Below are positions 5,477 through 36,976 of a DNA stretch of 64,000 bases, piece after piece. The DNA comes from an uncultured cyanobacterium. GTDB taxonomy: Bacteria; Cyanobacteriota; Cyanobacteriia; CAKZMO01. Within the stretch, counting starts at the first letter, position 1. Each line of letters opens with the position of its first letter. The DNA lies in the NCBI GenBank assembly GCA_963719515.1, contig CAVRCJ010000003.1, positions 224,001 through 288,000 on the forward strand, in the 5' to 3' direction. The position numbers and the translations under genes are program-made. Under the pieces are notes generated by a model. The model saw only the letters and a program-made list of their open reading frames with translations. It was not told where the DNA came from and did not search any database.

Positions 5477-7132
5477 GTGTTCTCAGGCATCACTCAATCA
5501 AACTCTCGTCAGCGAGAAATTGTCGAAGTTGTTTTTCGCAACGGATGGGACTACATGCGCCGGCTGCTGGCGGGCAGCAGCAAAAATGAAGAGCCCGAGC
5601 TACCCACCCCCGCCGTCCTGCGCAACATCTTGGTTGACCTCGGCCCCATCTATATCAAGCTCGGCCAGCTAATGAGCACGCGGCCCGATCTCCTTCCCCC
5701 TGACTACATTGATGCCCTGTCGACCCTACAGGCGACGGTTCCTCCCATCCCCTGGATTGAGGTCGAGCGGGTGATTCGTCAGCAGGTCGGGCAGCCTATC
5801 AACCAGGTGTTCACCAAAATTGATCCCGAGGCGATCGCCGCCGGTTCTATTGCCCAGGTGCATCGGGCTATCCTGAAAAGCGGCGAAGAGGTCGCTATCA
5901 AAGTGCAGCGCCCCGGCATCGACGAGATCATCGATCAAGACATCTCCATTATTCGCGGCGTGGCTGAGCTAGTGTCGCGCACTAAGTTTGGGCAGTATTA
6001 CGACGCTACGGCCCTAGCGGACGAATTTTCCAGCGCCCTGCAGTCGGAGCTTAACTTTTTGGAAGAGGCGGGCTTTACCGATAAGCTGCGGCGCAACCTC
6101 TCTAAAAGCACCTGGTTTGACACCGATATGCTGGTGGTCCCCGCAATTTACTGGGATCTAACCACCGAGAAGATGCTGGTGATGGAATGGCTGCACGGCG
6201 TTCCGATTTTGACCGCTGAGCTGACGGGCCAGCGCTACAAAGGAGACATTGAGGCCGAGCGCAAAGGTCTGACTACCATCCTCTTCCGCGCCTTTTTTCA
6301 GCAGCTCTACGTCGACGGGTTCTTCCACGCCGACCCCCACCCCGGCAACGTGTTCTACCTCGACGACGGCCGGCTGGCCTTACTGGACTGCGGCATGGTG
6401 GGACGCCTCGACCCCCGCACCCAAAGCCTGCTCACCGAGATGATTTTAGCGATCGCCGGGTCTGACGCCCAGCGCTGCACCCAGCTCACCCTAAAGCTGG
6501 CCCACCAGGTGCGCCCCGTGAATCTGGTGCAGCTGGAGGGCGACTATGACCAGCTGATGCGGAAGTACTATAGCCTTAGCCTGGATGAACTCAACTTCAG
6601 CCAGGCGTTTTACGAGGTGCTGCAGTCTGCCCGGCGAAACCATCTGCGCTGGCCCAGCAACATGGGCCTCTATGCCAAATCATTGGCTAACTTAGAGGGG
6701 CTGGGCCGCAAGTTTAACCCCGAGGTGAACCTACTCGATGAGGTGCGCCCCTTGGTGACCGACCTGTTCCGTCAGCAGCTGCTCGGCGACGACCCGATGC
6801 AGGCTTTGCTGCGCACCGGCCTGGAGGTCAAAAATCTATCCCTAGAGACGCCCCGTCGTCTTGAGTTCTTGCTCGACCGCATTAGTACCGAAAGCTTTAA
6901 GTGGAATCTGTCTCTGCGAGATTTGGACGGCCTGCGGCTCACCATCGACGATTCGGCTAACCGGCTGTCGTTCAGCATTTTGGTGGGCTCGCTAATTATG
7001 GGGGCGGCGATCGTGACGGCCCAGGAGAAGTCGTCGGAGCTGTATTGGCTGAGCACGGTGCTGTTTGTGGCGGCGAGCTTGCTGGGGCTGTGGCTGATTA
7101 TCAGCATTGTCAGATCAGGGAAGTTACGCTAG
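5477..7132 (+). CDS. ABC1/AarF/UbiB atypical kinase
   Basis: LGPIYIKLGQLMSTRPD, AAGSIAQVH, VAIKVQRP, FHADPHPGN and LLDCGM; two C-terminal TM helices. Confidence 0.92.
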   Translation: MFSGITQSNSRQREIVEVVFRNGWDYMRRLLAGSSKNEEPELPTPAVLRNILVDLGPIYIKLGQLMSTRPDLLPPDYIDALSTLQATVPPIPWIEVERVIRQQVGQPINQVFTKIDPEAIAAGSIAQVHRAILKSGEEVAIKVQRPGIDEIIDQDISIIRGVAELVSRTKFGQYYDATALADEFSSALQSELNFLEEAGFTDKLRRNLSKSTWFDTDMLVVPAIYWDLTTEKMLVMEWLHGVPILTAELTGQRYKGDIEAERKGLTTILFRAFFQQLYVDGFFHADPHPGNVFYLDDGRLALLDCGMVGRLDPRTQSLLTEMILAIAGSDAQRCTQLTLKLAHQVRPVNLVQLEGDYDQLMRKYYSLSLDELNFSQAFYEVLQSARRNHLRWPSNMGLYAKSLANLEGLGRKFNPEVNLLDEVRPLVTDLFRQQLLGDDPMQALLRTGLEVKNLSLETPRRLEFLLDRISTESFKWNLSLRDLDGLRLTIDDSANRLSFSILVGSLIMGAAIVTAQEKSSELYWLSTVLFVAASLLGLWLIISIVRSGKLR

Positions 7133-7421
7133 GGGGACAGCGTTAATGCCCGCTTCGGAACAAACGCGGCTCTAAATTGATGCAGCTCGGGATCGGCAGC
7201 AGAGGGGGAGCGGAGCTTTGCTGCTGTCAAAGAAGCTTACGTTGAGCCCGCAAATCTGCTAATGAGGGTCTCACCCGTTTGACCTCCATTTTCCCAGAGC
7301 GAGAATCGCACCAATATGAAAGCGATCGCCATTTCTTCGCTATCAGTTAAGATAAAAAGCTGGTTGAGAAAAGAAATCAAAAATAGCATTTACTTCCAAG
7401 CTTTAGCTAAGTTAAAATCCT

Positions 7422-8951
7422 ATGACCGCATCGGTTAACAAGTCCGCAACCCTACTGGAACTCCTTGCCGGAGCTGATGACCAGATAGCTTTGACTGCGC
7501 CCGCTAAGCCTAGCCTGACCTATAGACAGCTTCGGCAACACATCGTGGAGCTCGTCGCCCAGCTCAATCAGCTGGGTGTGGGCCGAGGCGATCGCCTCGC
7601 CATTGCCATCCCCAACGGCCCGGAGATGGTGGTCACCTATCTGGCGGCGGCCACCTGCGGCACGGCGGCCCCCCTCAACCCTAAGTACAAGCAAGACGAG
7701 TTTGCCTTCTATTACGAGAGCACCGGGGCGATCGCCCTCATCGTTTTGGGCGAAGGGATTGAGGCCGCCAAGGCAGCGGCAGCCGATATCGACATGACCC
7801 TGATTCAGGCCACCGCTCAAGGCGACGGTACCCTGAGCCTGAAGCAAGTGGGCGGTAAGCAGCGCGATCCTAAGCCCCACGAGCTGGCGGAATCGGAAGA
7901 CATCGCCATGATTTTGCACACCAGCGGCACCACCAGCCGCCCCAAGCGGGTGCCCATTCGCCACCGCAACCTAGCGGCCTCCGCCAGCAACATTATCGGC
8001 ACCTACAGCCTCAGCGATCAGGACCGCGCCCTCTGCGTTATGCCCCTGTTCCACGTCCACGGCATCGTCGCCTCCCTGCTCTCTACCCTGATTTCCGGCG
8101 GCACGGTGATCTGTCCGGCGGGCTTCAACGCCCTGGAGTTCTTTAAGATTCTTGCCGAGTTTCAGCCCACCTGGTATTCGGCGGTGCCCACCATGCACCA
8201 GCTGCTGCTCTCTCGGGCCGAGCGCAATAAGGAGGCGATCGCCGCAGCCCCCCTGCGGTTTATCCGCTCCAGCAGCTCGTCCCTGCCGCCGGTGGTCCTA
8301 GAGCGGCTAGAGGCTACCTTCAATGCCCCGGTGCTCGAAGCCTACAGCATGTCGGAGGCCGCCCACCAAATGACCTCCAACCCCATGCCCCCCGCCGAGC
8401 ATAAGGCGGGCACCGTGGGCAAGGGCTTCGGGGTGGAGGTGAACATTATGGACGAGGGCGGCAGCCTGCTGGAGCAGGGCGGCTTGGGGGAAGTGGTGGT
8501 CAAAGGGGCCAACGTGTTTGACGGCTACGAGGGCAACCCCAAAGCCAACGAAACCGCCTTCACCGGCGGCTGGTTCCGCACTGGGGATCAGGGTGTCTTA
8601 GACGGCGACGGCTACCTATCGCTGACGGGCCGCATTAAGGAGCTAATTAACCGGGGGGGCGAGAAGATTTCGCCGCTGGAGGTGGATAACGTACTGCTGC
8701 GCCACCCCGCCGTGGCGGAAGCCCTGGTGTTTGCCGTCCCCCACAAAACCCTAGGGGAAGATATCCACGCGGCGCTGGTGGTGAGTGAGGCGGTAGAAGA
8801 AAAAGATCTGCGCACCTACTGCGCCGAACACATTGCTGACTTTAAGGTGCCGAAGAAATTTCATATCTTAGACGCGCTGCCCCGAGGGGCCACCGGCAAG
8901 CTGCAGCGGCTCAATATGGCCAAAATGCTCAACCTGACTGGGGAATCATGA
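7422..8951 (+). CDS. Acyl-CoA synthetase, oxalate-CoA ligase (AAE3/Pcs60/Oxs)-like
   Basis: LHTSGTTSRPK, PLFHVHG, EAYSMSEAAHQMTSN, FRTGD, ELINRGGEKISP and TGKLQR closely follow the motifs I recall for plant AAE3 and yeast Pcs60. Confidence 0.8.
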   Translation: MTASVNKSATLLELLAGADDQIALTAPAKPSLTYRQLRQHIVELVAQLNQLGVGRGDRLAIAIPNGPEMVVTYLAAATCGTAAPLNPKYKQDEFAFYYESTGAIALIVLGEGIEAAKAAAADIDMTLIQATAQGDGTLSLKQVGGKQRDPKPHELAESEDIAMILHTSGTTSRPKRVPIRHRNLAASASNIIGTYSLSDQDRALCVMPLFHVHGIVASLLSTLISGGTVICPAGFNALEFFKILAEFQPTWYSAVPTMHQLLLSRAERNKEAIAAAPLRFIRSSSSSLPPVVLERLEATFNAPVLEAYSMSEAAHQMTSNPMPPAEHKAGTVGKGFGVEVNIMDEGGSLLEQGGLGEVVVKGANVFDGYEGNPKANETAFTGGWFRTGDQGVLDGDGYLSLTGRIKELINRGGEKISPLEVDNVLLRHPAVAEALVFAVPHKTLGEDIHAALVVSEAVEEKDLRTYCAEHIADFKVPKKFHILDALPRGATGKLQRLNMAKMLNLTGES

Positions 8952-9919
8952 AGGTCTGTATTGTGGGGGCGGGGGCGATTGGGGGCTACATTGGCGCGAA
9001 GCTAGCTCTGGCCGGAACCGACGTGACGCTGATTGCGCGAGGTGCCCATCTAGAGGCGATGCAGACTCAGGGGCTGACCCTGGAGAGCGAGGGGGAGACA
9101 CAGACAATCCCGGTGACCGCCATGGAGGACATCCGCAAGGCGGGGATTCATAATGTGGTGATTGTCGCTCTCAAGGCTCACAGCGTCCCCAAAGTGGCCG
9201 AAGCGCTACCCGCTCTCTACGGCCCTGACACCCTGGTGATCACCGCCCAGAACGGCGTGCCCTGGTGGTACTTCCGCAAGCTCGACCACCCCAAACAGGA
9301 CTACTGCATCCAGTCCGTTGACCCCAACGGCATTGTGGAGGCCAACGTTCCTGTGGACCGGGTGATTGGCTGCGTGGTCTATCCCGCCGCTGAACTCTCG
9401 GCCCCCGGCGTAGTGCGCCACATCGAGGGCGATCGCTTCTCCTTAGGGGAGCTAGACGGCTCCAAGAGCGATCGCCTCAAGGCGCTGTCCAAGACCCTGC
9501 GTCAGGCGGGCATCAAGGCTCCGATGCGCAGCGAGATTCGCAACGAGCTGTGGGTGAAGCTGTGGGGCAACCTGGCCTTTAACCCCATCAGCGCCCTCAC
9601 CCGCGCCACCCTAGAAGATATCTGTCAGTATTCTCTGACGCGAGACCTAGCGCGAAACATGATGGAGGAAGCCCAGGCGATCGCCGAAAGCCTGGGAGTC
9701 ACATTCAGAATTCCCCTAGAGCAGCGTATTGATGGGGCAGAGCAGGTGGGCGCCCACAAGACCTCAATGCTGCAGGATATCGAGTCAGGGCGACCGACTG
9801 AAGTCGATGCCCTAGTCGGAGCGGTGGCCGAGCTGGGTCGCCTTGTGGAGATTCCCACCCCCCATATCGATGCGGTTTATGCCAGCGTCAAGCTTCTGGA
9901 AAAGACGCTGGCAGAATAA
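8948..9919 (+). CDS. panE: Ketopantoate reductase family protein (PanE2/oxalyl-CoA reductase-like)
   Basis: GAGAIG Rossmann motif, QNGVPWWYF, WVKLWGN, HKTSMLQD and E-motif RPTEVD; ATGA overlap with the ligase. Confidence 0.82.
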   Translation: MKVCIVGAGAIGGYIGAKLALAGTDVTLIARGAHLEAMQTQGLTLESEGETQTIPVTAMEDIRKAGIHNVVIVALKAHSVPKVAEALPALYGPDTLVITAQNGVPWWYFRKLDHPKQDYCIQSVDPNGIVEANVPVDRVIGCVVYPAAELSAPGVVRHIEGDRFSLGELDGSKSDRLKALSKTLRQAGIKAPMRSEIRNELWVKLWGNLAFNPISALTRATLEDICQYSLTRDLARNMMEEAQAIAESLGVTFRIPLEQRIDGAEQVGAHKTSMLQDIESGRPTEVDALVGAVAELGRLVEIPTPHIDAVYASVKLLEKTLAE

Positions 9920-9928
9920 CCCCGTGTC

Positions 9929-10426
9929 TCAGGCCGCCTGAGGCAGAGACTCGCCTCCCCGAGGCTTTCCCCAGTCTCTTCTGGCTGTAGCCTGCTCAAT
10001 CACCCGCTGCAGCCGAGGAATCTCGCCGCTGTTGTAAACCCGAAACTCGCCTTCTAGGGTGGCGTTAGTTTTTCGCACCGCTTGGTTAAGGACTAGGGAG
10101 CCTTGGGGATCGGAAACGGAGCGATGAAACGTGCCGGGTGGAATCCTCAGAATGTCGCCGTTAGCTTCAAGGCGCACCACGTGAAACGGCACGCGCCAGG
10201 ATAGGTTCACCAGACAAAACGTCCGCCCCCCGCTCAGCGCCAGCAGGTTGTCCTCCTGTCGGGGGTGGAGGTAGAACTGCCAGTTGTTGCGGGCGTCGTT
10301 GTTGGGGCTGACGGCGGGACCGTCGTGAGACACTAGATCGCGGGCGTTGGAGGTGTTGATGGTGATATCAAAGAACTTGACGCCCGGCGTGTCGCGAAAC
10401 TTCTGATAGGAGATGAGTTCAAACAT
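9929..10426 (-). CDS. RmlC-like cupin protein of unknown function
   Basis: Cupin-like motifs YLHPRQED and LRIPPGTFH. Confidence 0.65.
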   Translation of the reverse strand: MFELISYQKFRDTPGVKFFDITINTSNARDLVSHDGPAVSPNNDARNNWQFYLHPRQEDNLLALSGGRTFCLVNLSWRVPFHVVRLEANGDILRIPPGTFHRSVSDPQGSLVLNQAVRKTNATLEGEFRVYNSGEIPRLQRVIEQATARRDWGKPRGGESLPQAA

Positions 10427-10761
10427 GGGAATTTCAGGGGGTTGCTAACGGCGTAAGCGAAAATTAGCCATCGGACAGCGCAGAGCTTGTGAATAGAGAG
10501 CAGGTGGCAGTCTGACCTTGAGATCTATTCGCAACCGAGATAGGTGAATCCGCGCAGACTTCACGGTTAAAGTCTGTCAGTCGCCAGTGGTATCAGCCAA
10601 AAAATTGAGGGCTAGCTCAGGGCAATAGAAGGAGACCTGCGATAAAAGGCGCTAGGCCTAAGGTGGGCGGTTCACGAGCGAAAGCGCTAGTCTTTCCTTA
10701 AGTTCGCTTATCAATACGCTAACAAGCAGCTCCCAATGAGATCAAAACAGTTCGCGACTTA

Positions 10762-10786
10762 TATCTATGCGATCTGCGCATAGATA
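10762..10786. promoter_or_regulatory. LysR recognition site TATCTATGCG-N5-CGCATAGATA
   Basis: Perfect 10-bp inverted arms containing T-N11-A (T10768 to A10780), ending 6 nt before the LysR ATG. Confidence 0.7.
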
Positions 10787-10792
10787 AACGTA

Positions 10793-11677
10793 ATGAACAT
10801 TTTACATTTCCAGATTCTGGCGGCGATTGTCGAGCACGGCAGCTTCTCCGGCGCGGCGGTTCACCTCGATTTGTCTCAGTCTGCCGCAAGTCGGGCGATC
10901 GCCGCCCTTGAAGATGAACTCGGGGTGACGCTGCTCGTGCGCGGGCGCTTCGGTGCGCGGCTAACGCCCGTAGGGGAAAGGGTGATGAGCCACGCCCATC
11001 AGATCCTGCAGGGGCAGGAGCTCATTGAGGCTGAGGTGAACCTGCACAAAGGACTCAACAGCGGACACCTGCGCATTGCCTCATTTCGCAGCGCCGCCAC
11101 CCACGTTTTGCCGCCGGTCATTGCCCAGTTTCGTCAGCGGTTTCCCGGCGTAGATATCTCCTTAGATGAGCTTGATCCGCTGGGGGTGGAGCGGGTGCTA
11201 CGGTCGGGTGCTGCCGATATCGGCATGCTGCCGCTCCCCCGCTCGGAGGAATTTGAGACCTGGGAGGTAGAGCGGGATGAATACGTCGTGCTGCTGCCTA
11301 GCCAGGTGTCTCTCCCAGAGCAGCTGAGCTGGGAGTACCTGTCGCTTCACGAGTTCATCTTATATAACTACGCCGAATGCACCTCGGCGGTGCGCAAGCA
11401 CTGGGCGCACTGGGACCAGGTCCTCAACATCGCCTACGAAATTAAAGAAGACTCCACCATCGTCAGCATGGTGGCTCAAGGTCTAGGGGCCGCCATTTTG
11501 CCCCGGCTGACGGCGCTTCCCATTCCGCCGACGGTGCAGGTGCGATCGCTCCCCGTTCCCCTAGAGCGCGTGGTAGGGGCCGCCATTGTGGCCAACTCCC
11601 TACAGCCGCCCACTACCTTCGTGTTTTTAGACTTACTGCGGGGCCAGAGCGTATTTAAGCGCGATCGCACCGGATAA
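10793..11677 (+). CDS. LysR-family transcriptional regulator
   Basis: HTH GSFSGAAVHLDLSQSAASRAIAALEDELG; substrate domain with FRQRFPGV and VAQGLG. Confidence 0.95.
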   Translation: MNILHFQILAAIVEHGSFSGAAVHLDLSQSAASRAIAALEDELGVTLLVRGRFGARLTPVGERVMSHAHQILQGQELIEAEVNLHKGLNSGHLRIASFRSAATHVLPPVIAQFRQRFPGVDISLDELDPLGVERVLRSGAADIGMLPLPRSEEFETWEVERDEYVVLLPSQVSLPEQLSWEYLSLHEFILYNYAECTSAVRKHWAHWDQVLNIAYEIKEDSTIVSMVAQGLGAAILPRLTALPIPPTVQVRSLPVPLERVVGAAIVANSLQPPTTFVFLDLLRGQSVFKRDRTG

Positions 11678-11699
11678 TAGGGCCATCGCGCTCAAGGTA

Positions 11700-13232
11700 T
11701 TGGCAATGCACAAGCGGACCCTCCCCGTCGGGACTGTTGGCCTCGTTGCCGGGGCCATCTTTGTGGGCCTGCTGCTGCGGGTTGTAGGCCTAGCAGACAA
11801 CGTCTACTGGGTGGATGAGGTCCACACGGCGCTGCGGCTGGCGGGCTACACCAAAGAAACCGTCGTCCCCCTGCTTACTCAGCCCACTACCGCCGGTGAG
11901 CTGACGCCGTTTCAGGGCACCGCCGCCGCCCTTCCCGACACCCTGCGGGCTCTGGCCCAGCACCCCGAGCACCCGCCGCTCTATTACCTTATGGCCTGGG
12001 GTACCCTGGCGCTGGGCCGCTCGGCCTTGGGCTTTGTCGGCGGACTGCGAGGAGTGAGCGTCTTTTGGGGGCTGTGGGCGCTGCCCGCCACCTACTGGCT
12101 GTGCTGGGAGCTCTGGCGATCGCCTCGGGTGAGCGCCCTAGCGCTGGCGCTGGTGACCCTGTCGCCGCTGCATGTGCTCTACGCCCAGGAAGCACGGGAG
12201 TATAGCCTGTGGACGAGCATGATTTTGTTCTCCAGTGCGGTCCTGCTGCGATCGCTGCGGCGGGGGGGCGGGGGGAGGTGGGCCGTGTACGGCATAACGG
12301 TGGTGCTAGGTCTCTACAGCCATCTGCTGTTTGGCGTGGTGATGCTGGCCCACGGCAGCTATGTCTTGATCACGACCCGGTCTAAACCTGGGCGGTGCGG
12401 GGCCTATGTCCTAGCCACAGCGCTGGCGATCGCCGCTTTTTTGCCCTGGGTTTGGGTGGGGCTGCAGCGGCTGGGGCAGATGAGCGCCGTGGCCGACGCG
12501 GTGCAGCGGGACACCTCGCTGGGCTACTTGATCAACGTCTGGAGCCGCAATCTCAACCGCGTATTTTTTAATGGCGACTGGGGCACCGCCAATTTGCTGA
12601 TTTTGGGGCTAGCGCTCTACGGCCTCTACTTTCTCTGGCACTCATCGCCCCGTCCCGCCAGCGCCCTATTTGTTGGCCTGCTGGTCGCTATTCCGGCCTT
12701 GACCCTGCTGGTGCCTGACCTAGTTTTGGGCGGCATTCGCTCCACCCGCATCCGCTACCTGATTCCGGTCTACCTAGGGGTGCAGCTGGCGATCGCCCAC
12801 CTGTTTGTGGGGCAGCTGCAGCGGCGGCGGAGCTGGGCAAAGCAGATCTGGGGGTTGGGTCTTGCCGCTATTTTGCTGGGGAGCGGCGGGGCGAGTTTGG
12901 CCAGCACCCAAACGCCTCTAAGCTGGGCCAAAAGCGATAAATCGGCCTACTACCCCGCTATGGCAGAGGCCATCAACGCCAGCGAGGCCCCTTGGGTGAT
13001 CAGCGATTCCTCTGTGACCTACCTGCTAGCTCTGGCGCGATTGCTCAAGCCGACGACAACGCTGCAGCTTGTAGAGGCCTCTAATCTGGGGTCGCAGCTA
13101 GGACCAACGGTCTTTTTGTTTGACCCCTCCCCTCCGCTAAAACGCGCGATTCGACGTCGCTATGGGCCGCTGCAGCTGCGGGTAGAGCAAAATTCTGGCT
13201 TTCAGCTGTGGCAGCTGAGGCCAAGCCAGTGA
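11700..13232 (+). CDS. GT-C (GT39/PMT-like) membrane glycosyltransferase
   Basis: YWVDE, EHPPLYY, YAQEAREYS and RYLIP motifs; many TM helices. Start is TTG 11700 or ATG 11706. Confidence 0.8.
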   Translation: MAMHKRTLPVGTVGLVAGAIFVGLLLRVVGLADNVYWVDEVHTALRLAGYTKETVVPLLTQPTTAGELTPFQGTAAALPDTLRALAQHPEHPPLYYLMAWGTLALGRSALGFVGGLRGVSVFWGLWALPATYWLCWELWRSPRVSALALALVTLSPLHVLYAQEAREYSLWTSMILFSSAVLLRSLRRGGGGRWAVYGITVVLGLYSHLLFGVVMLAHGSYVLITTRSKPGRCGAYVLATALAIAAFLPWVWVGLQRLGQMSAVADAVQRDTSLGYLINVWSRNLNRVFFNGDWGTANLLILGLALYGLYFLWHSSPRPASALFVGLLVAIPALTLLVPDLVLGGIRSTRIRYLIPVYLGVQLAIAHLFVGQLQRRRSWAKQIWGLGLAAILLGSGGASLASTQTPLSWAKSDKSAYYPAMAEAINASEAPWVISDSSVTYLLALARLLKPTTTLQLVEASNLGSQLGPTVFLFDPSPPLKRAIRRRYGPLQLRVEQNSGFQLWQLRPSQ

Positions 13233-35667: not shown

Positions 35668-35808
35668 TCAGGACGGCTTCTCTAAATGTAGGCGATCTAT
35701 CCAATCTTCTACCAGTTGAGTCATGGTCTTGTCCCTCTCTTTTGCAATCGCCCTAAGCTTTTGCAATCTTTTAATAGAGACTCTTAAATTAAGCTGTCCT
35801 TTTGCCAT
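35668..35808 (-). CDS. 46-aa ribbon-helix-helix (CopG/Arc-like) protein, absent from the ORF track
   Basis: Manual translation MAKGQLNLRVSIKRLQKLRAIAKERDKTMTQLVEDWIDRLHLEKPS*: beta-strand QLNLRV followed by two amphipathic helices. Confidence 0.72.
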   Translation of the reverse strand: MAKGQLNLRVSIKRLQKLRAIAKERDKTMTQLVEDWIDRLHLEKPS

Positions 35809-35851
35809 ACTGCCTACACAATGCCTACGCATCTATGCTATCATAAACAGT

Positions 35852-36976
35852 ATGAGAACATTGAAGTTTAAGATATACGAGCACAAGCGGAACCGGCACC
35901 TAAAGCGCACTATTAATGCTGCTGGGGTGATTTGGAACCACTGCATTGCTCTCCACAAACGGTACTACCGTATGTGGGGCAAACACCTCAATTGCTCTAA
36001 ACTTCAGTCTCATATTGCCAAGCTACGGAGGCGCAATCCGTTTTGGCAGTTGGTGGGGTCTCAGGCTGTGCAGGACATCTGCCAGCGAATTGAAAAGGCA
36101 TACCAGCTGTTCTTTAAGCATCACGGCAAAGGCTATAGGCCGCCTAGCTTTCAGAAGGTAAGGCGATACAAGTCGTTCACCCTAAAACAGGCGGGATACA
36201 AGCTGCTCAATGGTGGTCGTATCAAGATAGGCAGCAGGGTCTACCAGTATTGGAATTCAAGGGAGATAGAGGGCAAGGTTAAGACCGTCACGGTGAAGCG
36301 ATCGCCTTTGGGTGAGCTGTTTTTAGCCGTTGTGGTGGACCAGGAAGCTGAACCAGTTCAAGGCATCGAGACGGGTAAAACCGCTGGTGCTGATTTTGGA
36401 CTGAAGACGTTTCTCACTTTGTCAGATGGTACTCAAATCGAGTCTCCTGAATTCCTGAAAGCATCGCTCAAAGACCTTTGCCGAGCTAGCCGCAACCTAT
36501 CGCGCAAGCGAAAAAAGTCGGCAAACTGGCACAGGGCAAGACTAAATCTAGCTCGCTGCCATGAGGCCATAGCCAATAGGCGACGAGATTGGTTTTGGAA
36601 GCTTGCCCACCGGCTAACCGATACCTACGATGCGCTCTACTTTGAGACGCTGAACCTGAAAGGGATGCAGCGGCTATGGGGCCGGAAGATATCGGACCTA
36701 GCCCTAGCTGAATTTCTCGAAATCCTTCAGTGGGTGGCAAAGAAAAAAGGCAAGACCGTAGCATTCATCGACCAGTGGTATCCCAGCTCTAAAACTTGTA
36801 GCTGTTGTGGGCACGTACTGAAGGAGTTAGATCTAAAACAACGGCAGTGGGATTGCCCTATTTGCAACGAACATCACGATCGAGACTTAAATGCTGCAAT
36901 AAACATTCAACGGGTTGGGGCGTCAACCCGTGGGCTAGGCGATGTCAGACAGGCTCAGCCTGCGATCGCTGCTTGA
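35852..36976 (+). CDS. tnpB: RNA-guided endonuclease TnpB (374 aa)
   Basis: MRTLKFKIY N-terminus; RuvC-I GADFG, RuvC-II YFETL, Zn finger CSCC..CPIC, RuvC-III DRDLNAA. Confidence 0.93.
   Translation: MRTLKFKIYEHKRNRHLKRTINAAGVIWNHCIALHKRYYRMWGKHLNCSKLQSHIAKLRRRNPFWQLVGSQAVQDICQRIEKAYQLFFKHHGKGYRPPSFQKVRRYKSFTLKQAGYKLLNGGRIKIGSRVYQYWNSREIEGKVKTVTVKRSPLGELFLAVVVDQEAEPVQGIETGKTAGADFGLKTFLTLSDGTQIESPEFLKASLKDLCRASRNLSRKRKKSANWHRARLNLARCHEAIANRRRDWFWKLAHRLTDTYDALYFETLNLKGMQRLWGRKISDLALAEFLEILQWVAKKKGKTVAFIDQWYPSSKTCSCCGHVLKELDLKQRQWDCPICNEHHDRDLNAAINIQRVGASTRGLGDVRQAQPAIAA

Follow-up and report, generated by a model that had tools for sequence, protein, structure and literature searches.

An overlapping ligase and reductase gene pair

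The window analyzed here is a 64,000-nucleotide stretch of DNA from an uncultured cyanobacterium (GenBank assembly GCA_963719515.1, contig CAVRCJ010000003.1, forward-strand positions 224,001 to 288,000), and it forms part of contig C3 of a 5.28-Mb assembly (G000) with a marker-gene completeness of 100%. Near its start lie a ligase gene and a reductase gene that probably form an oxalate-scavenging route. A first-pass annotation of the same DNA had proposed a two-gene unit coupled by an ATGA overlap, and the open reading frames bear this out, with an ATG at 8948-8950 and a TGA at 8949-8951. The features are as follows:

7133..7421, + strand: intergenic region of 289 nt, a probable promoter region with two weak sigma-70-like sites (7279-7306 and 7389-7418)
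7422..8951, + strand: oxalate-CoA ligase-type adenylating enzyme (Oxs/AAE3/Pcs60 subfamily), stand-alone, 509 aa; PF00501 and PF13193; no carrier domain
8948..9919, + strand: PanE2/ApbA2-type reductase, predicted oxalyl-CoA reductase, 323 aa; PF02558 and PF08546; assigned from NF005089, clade and model
8948..8951, + strand: ATGA start/stop overlap, read from the sequence; translational coupling probable

The order ligase-reductase is repeated in nine other cyanobacterial loci, with gaps of -4 to 486 nt, and an ATGA-type overlap (-4 spacing) occurs also in genomes G004 and G142. Because the same gene order recurs in loci of other cyanobacteria, Chloroflexota and Proteobacteria, the pairing goes beyond chance. 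The GC content and third-position GC content (GC3) of the ligase (0.62/0.78) and reductase (0.61/0.74) genes stand at the top of the range of five neighboring genes (0.57-0.61/0.68-0.75), so that there is no sign of recent import. The nearest named homologue of the reductase, at 92% identity, belongs to an Elainellaceae cyanobacterium, in agreement with the cyanobacterial host that had been proposed. Promoter evidence is weak: 7000-10900 contains three sigma-70-like sites, and shuffled sequence gave a mean of 1.0 (sd 1.0).

Family assignment of the two enzymes

A search of the ligase against 227 PDB sequences ranked four oxalyl-CoA synthetase entries at the top, namely those of grass pea (6qjz, 436.6 bits), Arabidopsis (5ie0, 426.2 bits) and yeast (8aff, 382.5 bits), followed by a yeast fragment (284 bits). 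The best other ligase was MenE at 208.8 bits, more than 200 bits below the plant enzymes, and malonyl-CoA synthetases reached 175-186 bits. The motifs on which an oxalate-CoA ligase had first been suspected are all present (LHTSGTTSRPK at residues 165-175, PLFHVHG at 208-214, HQMTSN at 315-320, INRGGEKISP at 409-418). LHTSGTT and INRGGEKISP are general adenylation motifs, and what speaks for oxalate in particular is the score gap together with the pocket residues. Among the 25 NCBIfam matches listed, no model exceeded its cut-off for the ligase, the best being FadD7 (454.7 vs 650 bits); nothing on fadD7 function was found in literature titles and the opening lines of abstracts.

The substrate pocket of AtAAE3 is reported to consist of V215, H216, C288, S289, A313, M314, H319 and K500, of which Ser289 and His319 are termed specific for oxalyl-CoA synthetases (PMC8905533). 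By alignment, these positions map to V212, H213, S284, S285, S309, M310, H315 and K493 of the ligase, so that six of eight are identical and the two differences (C288 to S, A313 to S) are both small-for-small. The three oxalate-contacting residues of AtAAE3, Ser289, His319 and Lys500, are all retained (S285, H315, K493). Of 58 homologue rows that cover the position of H315 (at least 48% identity, some rows being one gene in two loci), 57 have the His, and the position is a gap in both paralogues of 32% identity. S309 is typical for the cyanobacterial branch, other bacteria having mostly G there. In a ligase tree of 49 rows, from which duplicates and rows with fewer than about 400 matched residues, the G142 ligase among them, were left out, 17 cyanobacterial ligases group with one Chloroflexia protein (support 95), and the subgroups match those of the reductase tree, as judged by eye only. 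Strong homology and the pocket residues make it likely that the ligase is of the Oxs type and would act on oxalate, ATP and CoA.

Oxs-like adenylation domains also occur fused to carrier domains in four cyanobacterial loci (L153:7347-10001, L154:6376-9033, L155:6108-11531 and L163:6597-8516), accompanied by a thioesterase, by a C-A-PCP module, or by a neighboring nonribosomal peptide synthetase (NRPS). They form a separate branch in the ligase tree, and the oxalate-pocket His is retained in three of the four loci; it is possible that these domains serve as oxalate-loading NRPS starters.

The reductase scores 477.7 bits on the NF005089 subfamily model (cut-off 223). Its AlphaFold model (pLDDT 92.5) has as nearest fold 3ghy, a putative ketopantoate reductase known from structural work (TM 0.91, 43% identity), and other PanE-family structures among the fold matches have identities of 20-29%. 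Named homologues include proteins of Chroococcidiopsis, Gloeocapsopsis, Chroogloeocystis and Leptolyngbya (73-76%), Nostoc and Desmonostoc (about 69%) and Chloroflexota (69-70%). All the nearest ones are labelled 2-dehydropantoate 2-reductase, and an atlas search with the reductase returned PanE-family names only.

In a tree of 145 rows, the window's protein falls into a group of 122, and the phylum's 23 other PanE-like proteins lie outside it (SH-aLRT 99). Thus the phylogeny of PanE versus PanE2 that had been called for separates the protein from other PanE-like phylum proteins, although it included no characterized PanE. Within the tree, 42 cyanobacterial rows form one group (83) that is unresolved against Chloroflexota, with the protein of G019 outside. 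The clade is marked by an insert starting PWWYF, part of the QNGVPWWYF string noticed earlier (residues 101-109), and by about 50 other positions, including R198, W206, G207, R260 and H270. These marks are missing from the 23 other proteins; those measured are 27-36% identical to the reductase. By way of proxy, the reductase is 54% identical to a protein of a Methylobacterium bullatum cluster, a value similar to the 51% given for PanE2 and ApbA2 (PMC7486775). Its clade and gene neighborhood make it likely that the protein is an oxalyl-CoA reductase, as predicted here. The assignments of the first-pass annotation, AAE3/Pcs60/Oxs type for the ligase and PanE2 type for the reductase, thus agree with the PDB ranking, pocket residues, neighborhoods of relatives, trees and co-occurrence.

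Distribution, gene neighborhoods and genome context

Across a phylum sample of 401 genomes, searched at E 1e-40 for the reductase and E 1e-60 for the ligase, the reductase found matches in 19 genomes, or 18 once G185 (37% identity, outgroup in the tree) was dropped. The ligase matched in 32, of which 18 hold stand-alone frames of at least 55% identity, a count that leaves out carrier-fused and distant matches. Both genes are present in 17 genomes (about 4%). One family, f30, has the reductase in 15 of 46 genomes and the ligase in the same 15; within it, all eight genomes of genus g50 are carriers, and their proteins group with named Nostoc proteins. The pair is adjacent in seven of the 17 carriers; in the other ten the genes do not lie within about 7 kb of each other, yet both are retained. 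One of four other genomes of the window's own genus (80-93% complete) has the pair, and in 21 of 41 relatives the search with the reductase gave no match. Many of the named carriers are, we presume, soil, rock or lichen cyanobacteria. The ligase of G167 (L156) belongs to a proteobacterial branch, and the same genome has an oxalate decarboxylase.

The gene neighborhoods of reductase relatives were taken from the 80 best loci, out of at least 597, in species genomes, 19 loci from phylum surveys and four of the 40 plasmid-collection matches listed; the marker seed proteins used pass their own NCBIfam cut-offs. Among the 74 non-cyanobacterial loci, 28 have an Oxs-like ligase near the reductase and 32 have a gene resembling oxc, frc or oxlT; counted together, 54 loci carry one or more of these four oxalate genes, in a set where many loci are short and one Frc-like match is only 54% identical. 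In M. bullatum, oxlT (627 bits, cut-off 335), an FAH-family gene, the reductase (54% identical) and the ligase (52%) stand in a row. Two further kinds of neighbor are confined to the non-cyanobacterial loci, an FAH-family gene (44 of 74, none of 29 cyanobacterial) and a TctA-type transporter (18 of 74, none in the cyanobacterial loci). On the cyanobacterial side, L042, L053 and L065 (three of 29 loci, from one close lineage) have panB upstream of the pair at a distance of one or two genes, and in L042 a small cupin gene immediately precedes the ligase. Bmp-family binding proteins of ATP-binding cassette (ABC) systems occur at or near the ligase in two f30 lineages (L049, L051, L157-L159, L162 and L164); the two proteins are 27% identical to each other, and in L049 and L051 ABC transporter genes lead into the pair with the same orientation. 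These systems are candidate importers.

Neighbors of the pair in the window, an ABC1 kinase gene upstream and a 165-aa gene and a LysR gene downstream, were considered as members of the unit and rejected, since neither the same-genus locus nor other loci retain them next to the pair. The 165-aa gene (9929-10426, - strand) is divergent from the LysR regulator (10793-11677, + strand); it has no Pfam or NCBIfam match, is similar to cyanobacterial clusters that bear the name 'redox protein', and shows a more distant likeness to cupin-type GPI. Farther away, an open reading frame of the TnpB/IS605 RNA-guided type, named by eye, lies at 35723-36976 (- strand) and has a near-identical copy at L188:6540-7790. 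Four DNA sequencing runs of one study, labelled sediment metagenome, contain this DNA, the best of them perhaps being the source sample, and no RNA run was among those listed; contigs from these runs cover parts of both genes, none of those listed spans the overlap, and they were not used as evidence.

Oxalate and glyoxylate genes were sought in 20 genomes, comprising 18 carriers (G000 and G004 included) together with G019 and G167. The absence of oxc, frc and oxlT that had been reported for the window was seen again when its open reading frames were read by eye, and extends to the whole genome and the 17 other carriers. Oxc was found in none of the 20 genomes at E 1e-70 (the best G000 match scored 209.7 bits, cut-off 739.4), the class III CoA-transferase family PF02515, to which Frc belongs, in none, and OxlT (TIGR04259) over its cut-off in none, with eight weak matches, none of them in G000. 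In a set of five carriers that includes G000, nothing passed the cut-offs for bicupin oxalate decarboxylase, glyoxylate carboligase or malate synthase, but each of the five has IlvC, GlcD and GcvP, and G000 encodes an AGT-type class V aminotransferase. The cupin oxalate decarboxylase, through which, according to the first-pass annotation, cyanobacterial oxalate metabolism is usually described, was found in 6 of 401 genomes and is thus rarer than the pair (17), which corrects a picture drawn from Synechocystis. Mutual exclusion of decarboxylase and pair was considered, but there is no evidence for it: none of 17 carriers has the decarboxylase, but only 0.25 would be expected by chance.

Proposed route, its alternatives and known systems

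We consider it probable that the pair scavenges oxalate, which would be converted by way of oxalyl-CoA and glyoxylate into glycine and serine at the expense of ATP and NADPH from photosynthesis. In the first step, the ligase would join oxalate to CoA (oxalate + ATP + CoA -> oxalyl-CoA + AMP + PPi). In the second, NADPH would donate a hydride to the thioester carbonyl beside the carboxylate, at a site formed by the Lys and Glu of the ketopantoate-reductase fold (K204, E285), and release of CoA would yield glyoxylate. The corresponding glyoxylate/oxalyl-CoA reaction of M. extorquens PanE is reversible, as assayed with NADP+ (PMC9485241). Net flux would nevertheless run to glyoxylate, because the ATP-driven ligase would push and no oxalyl-CoA decarboxylase or class III CoA-transferase would drain oxalyl-CoA, which leaves reduction as its one known exit. 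Glyoxylate would then be transaminated to glycine and passed on to serine, an AGT-type aminotransferase and glycine decarboxylase being present. In Cupriavidus necator growing on oxalate, deletion of apbA2 is reported to slow growth and deletion of frc-oxc to abolish it (PMC7486775), the latter presumably for lack of reducing power. C. necator needs frc-oxc for growth on oxalate, whereas a phototroph would draw NADPH from light and could dispense with this oxidative branch; freedom from the limit of reducing power would account for a unit of just two genes. The first-pass annotation's suggested link to 2-phosphoglycolate salvage holds in part: the downstream route of glyoxylate would be shared, but the pair cannot dispose of photorespiratory glyoxylate because Oxc and Frc are missing. 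It would instead add carbon to the glyoxylate pool, or recover oxalate lost from that pool.

Where the oxalate would come from divides our estimate almost evenly. An origin outside the cell is slightly preferred, because the distribution is patchy and transporters stand beside relatives in other phyla, and production inside the cell comes close behind, because the unit has neither transporter nor regulator. Several internal sources were considered and set aside. A full-length lactate/glycolate oxidase, taken as a general source, occurs in two of five carriers and not in G000, and the oxaloacetate-hydrolase family PF13714 in eight of 20 genomes and not in G000. What had suggested a purine origin were the Bmp-family proteins beside the ligase, together with genes of the ureidoglycolate-lyase-like (L051) and GGT (L038) kinds. 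It was not supported: HpxZ is present in seven of 18 carriers and absent from G000, the AllD family in none of 20 genomes, and OHCU decarboxylase in three of 18 carriers vs seven of 22 others, while the GGT proteins match 5hft, which we take to be HpxW, far less than 2nlz. G000 does hold a purine-degradation cluster on contig C10 (L188:7838-16043), with genes for 8-oxoguanine deaminase, OHCU decarboxylase, a xanthine permease, a GntR-like regulator, an HIU-hydrolase-like protein and the urate hydroxylase HpxO, two of the gene names being assigned by eye.

A number of observations weigh against the oxalate route. With respect to supply, the unit contains no oxalate importer, no transporter is common to the loci of all carriers, and none of the four candidate internal sources sought was found in G000. 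With respect to glyoxylate disposal, the AGT-type protein reaches only 340 bits on the BhcA model (cut-off 650), and gcvP of G000 is split or frameshifted by one extra base near L173:5075. The base is not present in contigs of two runs, whose sequence elsewhere agrees with the main copy and not with the partial duplicate nearby; the likely cause is therefore an error of assembly or a difference between strains. The phylum survey includes one genome with the reductase and no ligase (G019) and one with the ligase and no reductase (G167). Moreover, the carriers are kin (15 of 17 in one family), so that few independent events are involved and the Fisher p overstates the association. In the ligase, S285 is shared with the paralogues of 32% identity, which leaves H315 alone to separate them. 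The reductase also passes the general PanE model TIGR00745 (210 vs 141 bits), is annotated as 2-dehydropantoate 2-reductase, and shares N102, K204, N208, S273 and E285 with other PanE proteins, residues that presumably correspond to the catalytic set of Escherichia coli PanE. Its tree is a quick LG+G4 estimate with a long-branch warning, and the ingroup was gathered by likeness to the query. Comparison with the M. extorquens and C. necator proteins used genus-level proxies, of which the C. metallidurans match (51%) lies in a side branch with no oxc or oxs beside it.

The gcvP gene and a degenerate 5' duplicate about 6 kb away lie at L173:2792-5726 and 10691-11734 (contig C17 of G000); a CHAT/TPR-like gene between them is also apparently in pieces.

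Among the alternatives, the one that survives best, improbable as we judge it, holds that the reductase is the genome's ketopantoate reductase, serving pantothenate and CoA synthesis, and that the ligase is merely a CoA-using neighbor. Two further facts stand against the oxalate route here: the search for another panE or ilvC that had been proposed identified the reductase as the only PanE-family gene of G000, and panB lies near the pair in three of 29 cyanobacterial loci. The passed PanE cut-off, the fold and the retained Lys/Glu/Asn/Ser core point the same way. However, the same search found IlvC, which is able to perform the ketopantoate step, in G000 as in all five carriers tested. Synechocystis is described as having no PanE (PMC7133116), and in Bacillus subtilis IlvC is reported to be a third ketopantoate reductase (bioRxiv 2024.04.17.589903). 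Half of the relatives (21 of 41) do without a reductase match, the four other carriers tested hold a second PanE-family gene (27-28% identical), and the three panB loci represent a single close lineage. The co-occurrence with an oxalate ligase in 17 of 18 genomes would also be left unexplained. A second role or side activity of the reductase on ketopantoate is possible.

Marginally less credible still is action of the pair on another small acid, such as malonate, glyoxylate or an unknown 2-oxo or dicarboxylic acid, oxalate being merely the best-studied substrate of the family. The two AtAAE3 pocket residues replaced by S in the ligase (C288 and A313), the lack of an oxalate transporter or source among those sought, and the breadth of 2-oxo acids accepted by the PanE fold, with D-mandelate dehydrogenases among the fold matches, would suit this explanation. 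Yet the pocket changes are small-for-small, malonyl-CoA synthetases score 175-186 bits against 426-437 for the plant enzymes, the grass-pea enzyme is reported to favor oxalate over malonate by four orders of magnitude (PMC8905533), and relatives lie in oxc/frc/oxlT clusters. Least probable of all is a supply of oxalyl-CoA by both enzymes, from oxalate and from glyoxylate, to an oxalyl-transfer biosynthesis with an N-oxalyl product, for which the reversible reductase reaction and the carrier- or NRPS-fused Oxs-like domains of four cyanobacterial loci could be cited, but genes for an acyltransferase, a carrier or an NRPS are not conserved beside the pair, the fused domains branch apart from reductase-linked ligases, and three of their four genomes have no reductase.

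The preferred reading, scavenging of oxalate by the pair, allows a broader and much more tentative one, in which light would drive oxalate assimilation by a minimal Oxs-PanE2 route common to Chloroflexota and all eight sampled genomes of the Nostoc-like genus; oxalate from fungi, lichens, plants or mineral crusts would enter, and both carbons would be fixed via glyoxylate with no decarboxylation. If the preferred reading is right, oxalate would be returned to metabolism without loss of CO2 by about 4% of the sampled cyanobacterial genomes (17 of 401), among them one third of a large family (15 of 46). On the broader reading, such cyanobacteria would consume oxalate unnoticed by surveys based on frc and oxc, and in lichens oxalate could carry carbon from the fungus back to the cyanobacterium. 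As the first-pass annotation had anticipated, current labels conceal the pair, one gene being named for fatty-acid ligation and the other for vitamin B5 synthesis, and metabolic models would miss it. No cyanobacterial Oxs-PanE2 pair was found in the titles and opening lines of abstracts of the open-access papers listed, and the main text of three recent oxalotrophy papers (PMC13409138, PMC12927642 and PMC12551280) does not mention cyanobacteria.

Oxs, by that name and in that role, and PanE2 of Methylobacterium (Methylorubrum) extorquens AM1 were reportedly described by Schneider, Skovran and Vorholt in 2012. As in that system, for which the M. bullatum cluster serves as proxy (52% and 54% identity), an AAE3-type ligase adjoins a PanE-family reductase of the same clade; unlike in Methylobacterium, the host is an oxygenic phototroph, its genome has no oxc, frc or oxlT, and no FAH-family gene adjoins the pair. 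ApbA2 of C. necator H16 is a similar PanE2-like protein, a CoA-acylating glyoxylate dehydrogenase reported to support growth on oxalate, and is described as lying near frc-oxc, as able to run toward oxalyl-CoA decarboxylation and as feeding the glycerate pathway (PMC7486775). G000, by contrast, has no oxc, frc or gcl, and couples its reductase to an ATP-dependent ligase. AtAAE3 (5ie0), LsOCS (6qjz) and Pcs60 (8aff) are the best sequence homologues of the ligase with structures, sharing its three oxalate contacts; in plants, oxalyl-CoA is reported to proceed to decarboxylation or to beta-ODAP, whereas here a reductase takes that place. The photorespiratory oxalate decarboxylation branch of Synechocystis likewise handles oxalate at the glyoxylate node of a cyanobacterium, but is described as using a cupin enzyme and no CoA, with carbon lost as formate and CO2 (PMC7486775, PMC7133116). 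PanE/ApbA ketopantoate reductases share the fold and core residues of the reductase and differ from it in the PWWYF insert and clade residues. Classical oxalotrophy relies on oxc-frc-oxlT, and its decarboxylase, transferase and antiporter are all missing from the 20 genomes searched. The enzymes and their chemistry are thus known from Methylobacterium, and it is the host group that is new.

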